A stretch of DNA of 7,425 nt, taken from IMG/VR virus record IMGVR_UViG_2690316131_000009. The stretch is one strand, 5' to 3'. The DNA comes from a virus (lineage: Duplodnaviria > Heunggongvirae > Uroviricota > Caudoviricetes). The translations under genes were made by a program, and so were the position numbers. Numbering within the stretch: position 1 is the stretch's first letter; the number at the start of each line of letters is the position of its first letter. The notes under the pieces were generated by a model. That model had not been told where the DNA came from. It ran no database searches and saw only the letters and a program-made list of their open reading frames with translations. Positions 1,146 to 1,806 of this stretch are shown here, piece after piece.

Positions 1146-1166
1146 AAAAAAACCACCTTCCGGTGG
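1146..1166 (-). terminator. Intrinsic terminator about 100 nt downstream of Q (tR'-like)
   Basis: Minus-strand RNA reads CCACCGGAAGGUGG (GC-rich 5-bp stem, GGAA loop) followed by seven U. Position immediately after the Q gene matches where lambdoid phages place the late-operon terminator tR'. Confidence 0.6.
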
Positions 1167-1263
1167 CTTCCTTGTGCGAAAAAACTTGCATTTCGCCTCG
1201 CGATACAGCTTTGCGAAGCTTACAGGAATTCAAGCTGTTTCTGCGTAAAAAAGCAAGCTTTTT

Positions 1264-1806
1264 TTATCGAAATGAATCGTGCATAGGTACATAAAGCATG
1301 TGTTCAGCCACGGCTAACCAACCTGCAATACGTTTCTCACATGTGCTGAAACACCATTCCGGGTGAGTACGATTTAAACATTCTGCCATTTTTCTCTTAC
1401 TCATTCCCCGTCCTTCGTACCTTTGCCGGAGAATATTGATTAGCCCGGGATATTCCCCAAGCACCTCACTGATAACGCGATCAATAATCAACGCCTCTGT
1501 GTCTGTACAATGTGACAACCAGCTCTTCTGCTTCCCTCTGGTCATATCCCGAAAAAATGCCTCAAGTTCCGGTTTTTCCAGCCCGGATTTCTTCATGCTA
1601 CGTAAAACCTCATTAACTGCTGTTTTCGTCAGCCTTTTCGAAACCAGTAACCGGTTAAACATATTTCCGGATTTACCCCCACCGATATACGACCACCGCC
1701 CCCACATCCGTAATTTCCCCTGGATCCAGACTGCTTCCAGCGTGTTCAGGCGTAAATGTTCGCCGCTTTTGCCTGTAATTTCCGGATATATCATATTTAC
1801 GCTCAC
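1264..1806 (-). CDS. Phage antitermination protein Q (late gene regulator)
   Basis: 180-aa ORF in the expected position after RusA and before a short leader plus terminator. GTG start at 1806..1804 overlaps the rusA TGA stop (GTGA); an alternative ATG is at 1794. Family call from overall resemblance to lambdoid Q proteins, not from a search. Confidence 0.8.
   Translation of the reverse strand: MSVNMIYPEITGKSGEHLRLNTLEAVWIQGKLRMWGRWSYIGGGKSGNMFNRLLVSKRLTKTAVNEVLRSMKKSGLEKPELEAFFRDMTRGKQKSWLSHCTDTEALIIDRVISEVLGEYPGLINILRQRYEGRGMSKRKMAECLNRTHPEWCFSTCEKRIAGWLAVAEHMLYVPMHDSFR

Follow-up and report, generated by a model that had tools for sequence, protein, structure and literature searches.

A probable phage 21-type Q-dependent late-gene regulatory unit directly behind the DUF1133 gene of a lambdoid prophage

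The virus record IMGVR_UViG_2690316131_000009, whose whole stretch of 7,425 nucleotides is called the window here, comes from a lambdoid prophage of the type found in enterohaemorrhagic Escherichia coli (EHEC) and covers 7.4 kb of its early-right and late-control region. Directly behind its Q-like DUF1133 gene, on the same strand, lies a short unit of promoter-like hexamers, a conserved transcribed core and a terminator (Table 1). Judged from its sequence, this unit is probably a Q-dependent late-gene regulatory cassette of the phage 21 type. Such an element is expected at this position, but the version found here is previously unannotated and undescribed. An earlier sequence-only reading had proposed a PR'/qut late-promoter unit in this place, a proposal that is supported by the homology of the upstream protein to the Q21 family, the position, the promoter-like hexamers, the TAAGCT hexamer and the terminator.

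The mechanism that we infer begins at a sigma-70 promoter right after the Q stop codon, composed of an A-tract, the -35 hexamer TTGCTT, a 17 nt spacer and the -10-like hexamer TTGAAT. Transcription would probably begin at A1221, and the TAAGCT hexamer would re-capture sigma and thereby pause RNA polymerase within the first ~15-20 nt. Without Q, the polymerase would stop at the hairpin with its U7 tract (near 1146) and release an RNA of ~76 nt. The DUF1133 Q protein would bind the two octamers of the spacer, at the positions of the phage 21 Q-binding subsites QBEu and QBEd, and load onto the paused polymerase. The Q-loaded polymerase would then ignore the terminator near 1146 as well as the next one (838..821), and this read-through would lead to expression of the downstream morons, tRNAs and lysis genes.

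The same logic is found in phage lambda, where PR'/qut/tR' combines a constitutive promoter immediately after the Q gene with a -10-like pause element, met as transcription begins, and a short RNA that is released at a terminator. The Q site of lambda lies between the -35 and -10 hexamers, as in the layout proposed for the window. Six nucleotides (N6) separate the -10 and pause hexamers in lambda, compared with five (N5) in the window, and lambda Q belongs to an unrelated family (Pfam: PF03589). The lambda 6S RNA is 194 nt long.

A cassette of Q gene, pR', Q-binding element (QBE), sigma-dependent pause element (SDPE) and terminator has been described for phage 21 (Guo et al. 1991; Yin, Kaelber and Ebright 2019, bioRxiv 10.1101/651190). 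The phage 21 record (GenBank: OL657228) annotates pR' with the -35 hexamer TTGACA and the -10 hexamer AACACT, the start site, the SDPE TAAGCTG at +2..+8, the terminator and the Q-binding subsites QBEu (ATTGAGCA) and QBEd (AATGAGCA). We aligned all units with this record on the TA.GCT hexamer. The TAAGCT of the window is identical to the annotated pause element, and in both the window and phage 21 the octamer positions are found 28 and 20 nt upstream of it. In relatives, the octamer 28 nt upstream of the hexamer reads ATTGAGCA (locus L153), AATGAGCA (L152 and L006) or AGTGAGCA/C (many others); these are Q-binding subsites of phage 21, and their spacing from the hexamer is precisely that of phage 21. 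The -35 hexamer starts 7-8 nt and the predicted or annotated transcript 42-43 nt past the Q stop codon in both systems. A terminator follows within ~50-80 nt, and then come tRNA and lysis genes.

There are also differences between the two. Both promoter hexamers are 2 nt closer to the pause hexamer in the window than in phage 21; the start is therefore predicted on the A of TAAGCT and not one base before the hexamer, and the pause hexamer would span -1..+5 instead of +2..+7. The -10 hexamer is TTGAAT in the window and AACACT in phage 21. The leader has a predicted length of ~76 nt compared with ~50 nt, and in the window a conserved core of 28 nt lies between the pause element and the terminator. 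The sequence-only reading had suggested a comparison with the qut regions of phage 82 and phage 21, and phage 21 turned out to be the closest match.

The protein encoded upstream of the unit belongs to the DUF1133 family (Pfam: PF06576) with an E-value of 4e-110. It additionally matches the family of the phage 21 and 933W Q proteins (Pfam: PF06530) with 35 bits, above the cut-off of 26. In hhalign, a DUF1133 profile built from 12 family members aligned with phage 21 Q over 136 columns (probability 91.9%, E 6.8e-7, residues 6-154 of 162). A Foldseek search of the PDB gave only Q21 structures among its ten best matches, with probabilities of 0.94-1.0 and TM-scores of 0.44-0.56, and the next matches reach a probability of at most 0.11. 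Phage 21 Q chains are also the best sequence matches in the PDB, although these are weak (E about 0.2). Compared with Q21, the DUF1133 protein carries an insertion of ~30 amino acids (aa), and the identity is only ~24%. In a survey of Shiga toxin (Stx) phages, DUF1133 carries the label 'Q antiterminator (HHPred)' for 13 of them (PMC8136144). We accept the DUF1133 protein as a distant member of the Q21 family. DUF1133 genes 81% and 56% identical to that of the window were also found on contigs assigned to a 'Candidatus Nanosynbacter' metagenome-assembled genome (L137) and to 'Vagococcus sp.' (L148); these non-enterobacterial cases are likely due to assembly contamination or mis-binning.

The gene order places the unit directly behind Q and ahead of the lysis and late genes, all on the same strand, as seen in E. 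coli O26:H11 11368, in prophage Sp9 of strain Sakai and in phage records. In Sp9 the unit occupies the interval between ECs_1778 and ECs_1779. Behind Q, O26 11368 carries in this order the unit, a small open reading frame (ORF), a helix-turn-helix (HTH) gene, tRNA Ile/Arg/Arg, TerB, a nanS-p esterase, holin and lysozyme. Because the order runs from Q to tRNA and lysis genes, the unit occupies the place that PR', qut and tR' have in lambdoid phages.

To survey related units, IMG/VR was searched with a pattern of the core sequence, which leaves the sequence upstream of the core unconstrained. This search found at least 120 loci; the counts of units and variants in the following are those among the matches listed. 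About 100 distinct units share the layout TTG-17 nt-TTNAAT-5 nt-TANGCT, followed by a terminator 50-109 nt on. Upstream of the core the order is an A-tract, TTG, a 17 nt spacer ending in AAAC-TG-C, then T-T-n-A-A-T, five variable bases and TA. A DUF1133 gene lies upstream on the same strand in 119 of the 124 core-containing units. It directly adjoins the unit in about 100 of these 119, with a gap of 46-132 nt, and in 19 loci it is found 0.9-1.9 kb away behind inserted genes. For the five units with no DUF1133 gene upstream, 12-731 nt of upstream sequence is available in four and ~3 kb in the fifth. One viral contig (L082) carries two whole units on the same strand (732..759 and 4541..4568), 3.8 kb apart, and a DUF1133 gene directly precedes the second but not the first.

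The commonest insert between the DUF1133 gene and the unit is a module of isrK, C4-RNA and antirepressor, recognised by Rfam matches. This insert of ~840 nt, present between Q and the late promoter in L134 to L136, L035, L231, L182 and others, resembles the immI region of P1/P7. It consists, in this order, of the Rfam families c4-a1b1, isrK and C4 antisense RNA, a small ORF and the antirepressor gene. An immI-like insert of ~840 nt likewise stands behind Q genes of the Q82 family.

We aligned the 51 distinct variants among the matches listed. At the position of the A-tract, A5-6 is conserved in 92-100%. The TTG of the -35-like hexamer is invariant, and the octamer at 1235..1242 shows the pattern A.AAAC.G with 94-100% conservation. 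This octamer ends in TG in most relatives, which corresponds to an extended -10 (T 94%, G 100%), and in AG in the window. The TA.GCT hexamer, a candidate pause element, is invariant in all ~100 units. The five bases between TTNAAT and TANGCT are variable.

More distant relatives were collected by a search seeded with Q, using one genome per GTDB species. Their Q proteins have 192 aa, are 51-60% identical to that of the window and come from Klebsiella, Enterobacter, Citrobacter, Kluyvera, Buttiauxella, Phytobacter and others. The transcribed sequence of this 192-aa class is unrelated to that of the window (for example CGGGACGTTAAAGCGAACTGAGCA), but TTG-17-(TGn)TTNAAT-N5-TANGCT and a following terminator are kept. 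T, T, -, A, A, T of the -10-like hexamer are thus invariant in both divergent classes, and so is the TTG at all 192-aa-class loci. In the 192-aa class this TTG is a Leu codon within the Q reading frame and is TTG at every locus, which suggests a constraint on the DNA itself and not on the protein.

The sequence-only reading could not assign confident -35 and -10 hexamers. We agree that a consensus scanner finds none, and the hexamers became visible only by comparison. Its suggestion that the promoter may overlap the 3' end of Q also fits: the A-tract overlaps the stop codon, and TTG-17-TTGAAT begins 8 nt after it.

The GC core of the terminator hairpin is lengthened by A/U and G/U pairs to 1177..1142. 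From the Q stop codon it is 93 nt to the first stem base and 118 nt to the end of the U-tract, in line with the ~100 nt estimated before. As an isolated stretch of 40 nt, the hairpin of the minus strand folds with -23.9 kcal/mol (z = -6.4), and none of 200 shuffled sequences folded as well; the plus strand of the same stretch reaches merely -12.8 kcal/mol and lacks a proper U-run. The consensus terminator scan listed 4 sites in 2.3 kb where 2.3 are expected, so a terminator-like pattern is not significant alone. Moreover, the scanner lists 1142..1177 on the plus strand only (weak tail CTTCCTTGTG) and misses the better terminator of the minus strand with its U7. Because terminator-like patterns are not enriched here, the hairpin on its own is weak evidence, and the argument rests on the comparative data. 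A hairpin with a U-run is present in 98 of the 102 distinct related units among the matches listed, ending 50-109 nt past the predicted start, and this conservation raises the terminator above chance. In 67 of the 98 the end lies 75-79 nt past the start. Three of the four units that lack a hairpin with U-run have a defect in the hairpin stem.

The 28 nt core was found by reading the loci of BLAST matches, in which the core is followed by a leader and by a GC hairpin with a U-run that both differ from locus to locus. In loci chosen without reference to the core, it shows 0-2 changes where Q is 75-87% identical. BLAST matches with a Q of ~76-78% identity keep homology for ~72 nt past the stop codon and lose it at 1192, and other BLAST matches share 1000..1240 without Q. 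In L143 and L139 the core is joined to the spacer and Q of the 192-aa class. Because it is more conserved than Q and joins another Q and spacer class, the conservation of the core is probably not explained by Q recognition alone. The core may define where the polymerase pauses and escapes, or its conservation may come from a role of the RNA itself.

Several observations weigh against the reading as a phage 21-type cassette. The octamers of the window (TTTTACGC and AGAAACAG) are diverged and do not resemble the Q-binding site of phage 21, so that they are assigned to QBEu and QBEd by position only. The window promoter matches the consensus in 7 of 12 positions, with 3 of 6 in the -35 hexamer and AG in place of the extended -10 TG, and looks weak. 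The -10-like hexamer has a T at -11, where sigma-70 promoters have an almost invariant A. On the minus strand, 1264..1170 contains no promoter according to a consensus scan, which misses the -10-like hexamer because of this T at -11 and the 4/6 match. The AlphaFold model of the DUF1133 protein is of low confidence (mean pLDDT 60) and good only in the C-terminal half. The phage 21 model offers no explanation for the conservation of +3..+30, and L143 and L139 show that this core does not strictly follow the Q class. An Rfam covariance search with isrK and the other 4227 families gave nothing at E <=1 across the window, and a search of 1100..1300 only chance-level matches; in related loci, the Rfam isrK and C4 families match only the inserted module. 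In the Hfq list of strain Sakai, obtained by cross-linking and analysis of cDNA (CRAC), no orphan peak is listed at the copy in prophage Sp9. The missing peak says little because the list left out peaks less than 100 nt from a gene. Finally, neither the core sequence nor the Sakai locus tags were found in a full-text literature search.

The empty promoter scan and the non-canonical -10-like hexamer would also fit a simpler explanation, in which the hairpin and U7 are only the 3' end of the early or Q mRNA. In addition, AAAAAGCUUGC (1263..1253) and GCAAGUUUUUU (1190..1180) on the minus strand are complementary across the promoter and leader, ending in a U6 run, and could pair only in transcripts that come from upstream, that is in read-through transcripts from Q. 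This complementarity may be due to chance, because the A-tract and TTGC are features of the promoter. We regard the explanation as an mRNA end as very unlikely. In the 19 loci with 0.9-1.9 kb between Q and the motif set, promoter, leader and terminator stay together downstream of the inserted genes, so the unit is not simply the end of the Q mRNA. The sequence-only reading had named exactly this outcome, a terminator that acts only as the end of the Q mRNA, as one that would refute it, and the 19 loci argue against it. Furthermore, TTG-17-TTNAAT-N5-TANGCT is kept where the surroundings diverged, and the unit matches the annotated pR', QBE and SDPE of phage 21 position for position.

The strong conservation of the core leads to a second alternative, a free-standing small RNA (sRNA) gene with its own constitutive promoter and terminator, which would act in trans, have no Q loading site and stand near Q via an insertion hot spot. 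Such a gene would fit the conservation of the +3..+30 core, which greatly exceeds that of Q, and its occurrence with two Q and spacer classes (L143, L139). Prophage sRNAs are also common at this position: StxS (PMC7547250), IsrJ and IsrK (PMC2330248, PMC4825925). An independent sRNA gene would not explain why QBE octamers and an SDPE hexamer of phage 21 occur with the spacing that they have there, nor the strict linkage to DUF1133 genes. Functions in trans and as qut do not exclude each other, as in StxS, and no Hfq peak is listed in Sakai. Overall we hold this alternative to be very unlikely.

A third alternative takes the core as a DNA site for another protein, such as the downstream winged-helix-like protein, or as a linker for mosaic recombination, with TAAGCT as the true -10 and a start at ~1211. 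Mosaic joints at both edges of the core (~1240 and 1192) are consistent with it, and the 192-aa class usually has nnTGn before TAGGCT, which gives this hexamer the look of an extended -10. A start at ~1212..1210 is accordingly the alternative to A1221 if TAAGCT itself is the -10. As a -10, TAAGCT would be without a -35, the invariant TTG being 28 nt away; moreover, the same hexamer of phage 21 is annotated as transcribed and as a pause element. The small 65-aa ORF that would encode the winged-helix-like protein is missing from many unit-bearing loci, where tRNAs follow directly. A DNA site or linker is the least probable of the explanations considered here.

Within the reading as a phage 21-type cassette, the ~76 nt pR' leader could be kept because the RNA itself works, either as a multicopy trans-acting sRNA like StxS or as an element for the pause or for Q loading. 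We consider this unlikely, at a low but appreciable probability. If true, such a leader RNA would be made constitutively from 1-3 prophages in roughly one in five E. coli strains, EHEC among them. A hairpin conserved near the 5' end of the RNA (+3..+28) was rejected: it has a z-score of -3.7 in the 192-aa class only and of -1.0 in the class of the window, and RNAalifold on a MAFFT alignment found no conserved 5' hairpin.

A precedent for a second role of such leaders is the terminated PR' RNA of 933W and Sp5, StxS, which is a functional Hfq-binding sRNA (PMC7547250). The Q proteins of 933W and the window both match Pfam PF06530, and both units have the same position upstream of tRNAs and morons. 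The annotated promoter of 933W is TTTACG/TATCAT and its transcript has 258 nt (PMC7547250). As no TA.GCT or shared leader sequence was evident on reading, the 933W pR' was rejected as a close relative.

IsrJ of Salmonella Gifsy-1 is a 74 nt RNA with its own promoter and a Rho-independent terminator, located between anrP and the late genes (PMC2330248, PMC4825925). Its slot behind an isrK-C4-anrP insert is the slot of the unit in the 19 DUF1133 loci with inserts. The offset of 837 nt from isrK and the length of 74 nt are alike, the spacing being shared because the insert is shared, but the published probe maps to a different sequence. Gifsy-1-type loci also differ in their AntQ, which belongs to the Q82 family (Pfam: PF06323), in their canonical promoter TTGCAA-17-TATATT and in an RNA sequence unrelated to that of the unit. 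IsrJ is thus an analogue of the unit and not a homologue. In these loci (L168, L181, L196, L205, L218 and others; for example L181, minus strand, ~5760..5900), AntQ, isrK, the C4 RNA and anrP are followed by the canonical promoter, an RNA of ~74 nt that contains the IsrJ probe target, a terminator and the late genes. From this order it appears that Gifsy-1 makes IsrJ as its terminated late-promoter (PR'-tR') RNA, a reading not stated in PMC2330248 and PMC4825925.

HnrS (EcOnc10-12), a 66 nt multicopy prophage sRNA, was rejected as the identity of the leader RNA: in Sakai Sp9 it is encoded on the opposite strand beyond the Rz gene, at a distance of ~7 kb downstream. The EcOnc49 peak is located 300 nt downstream of the Sp9 copy on the other strand.

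The unit was found in 1081 of 5426 complete E. coli genomes (~20%), with 1-3 copies each, and the DNA behind the DUF1133 genes in these genomes is never annotated. The carriers include many EHEC of O157, O26, O111 and O45. In Stx phages, the type of Q and qut governs how strongly the late genes and the morons behind them, including the toxin genes, are switched on. DUF1133 is a family of 'unknown function' in RefSeq and Pfam, which the present comparison places in the mechanistically understood phage 21 branch of Q antitermination. It also leads to predictions at the level of single bases, namely a start at 1221, a pause element at 1222..1217 and Q-site positions at 1250..1235. In addition, more and more terminated late-promoter RNAs are being considered as possible regulators, and the unit adds a candidate to them.

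Table 1. Features of the predicted late-gene regulatory unit and of its neighbours in the window.
Feature	Position	Strand	Remarks
A-tract AAAAAAA	1259..1265	minus	overlaps the Q stop codon; possible UP-like element
-35-like hexamer TTGCTT	1251..1256	minus	always 17 nt from the -10-like hexamer
Octamer TTTTACGC	1243..1250	minus	at the place of QBEu in phage 21, 28 nt ahead of the pause hexamer
Octamer AGAAACAG	1235..1242	minus	at the place of QBEd in phage 21 when aligned on the pause hexamer
-10-like hexamer TTGAAT	1228..1233	minus	4/6 match to TATAAT
Predicted transcription start A	1221	minus	7 nt after the -10-like hexamer, invariant T before it; predicted from geometry and the invariant TA
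TAAGCT, candidate SDPE	1217..1222	minus	-10-like; would span -1..+5
Conserved initially transcribed core GCTTCGCAAAGCTGTATCGCGAGGCGAA	1192..1219	minus	+3..+30, 28 nt
Variable leader segment	1171..1191	minus	mosaic; at least 7 versions among relatives
Intrinsic terminator hairpin, tR' equivalent	1142..1177	minus	GC core 1166..1153 CCACC-GGAA-GGTGG, loop GGAA 1158..1161
U7 tract	1152..1146	minus	expected 3' end of the ~76 nt RNA
DUF968 gene	3224..2175	minus	
RusA gene	2162..1803	minus	
Q-like DUF1133 gene	1794..1264	minus	176 aa from ATG 1794; TAA 1266..1264; alternative GTG start 1806
65-aa winged-helix-like ORF	825..1022	minus	first gene beyond tR'; weak TrmB and DprA_WH matches below the Pfam cut-offs
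Second terminator	821..838	minus	follows the 65-aa ORF
HTH gene	64..687	minus	207 aa; 237 aa in relatives, RefSeq label 'helix-turn-helix domain-containing'

Prophages of O157:H7 and other Shiga toxin-producing E. coli match the window at 99-100% identity, and O26:H11 11368 is 96.5% identical across 85% of the window length. The first ~110 nt of the window have diverged from the O26 relatives, so that the C-terminus of the HTH protein differs; the window version of this protein has no Pfam match. The best promoter-like match of the region is found before the HTH gene at 750..723 (ATGATA-16-TATAAT, 10/12).

The module of the 65-aa ORF and the second terminator (825..1022 and 821..838) occurs at 91-95% identity in several Stx2a phages, in the Stx2k phage and in phiP27 (Stx2e). 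The records of phiP27 and the Stx2k phage were inspected, and in both of them the module is located upstream of tRNAs and stx genes and behind other Q types. In the early region of the window, a toxin-antitoxin pair of the ParD/ParE type is encoded in the opposite orientation on the plus strand (3634..3891 and 3897..4196) and is annotated as such in O26 11368.

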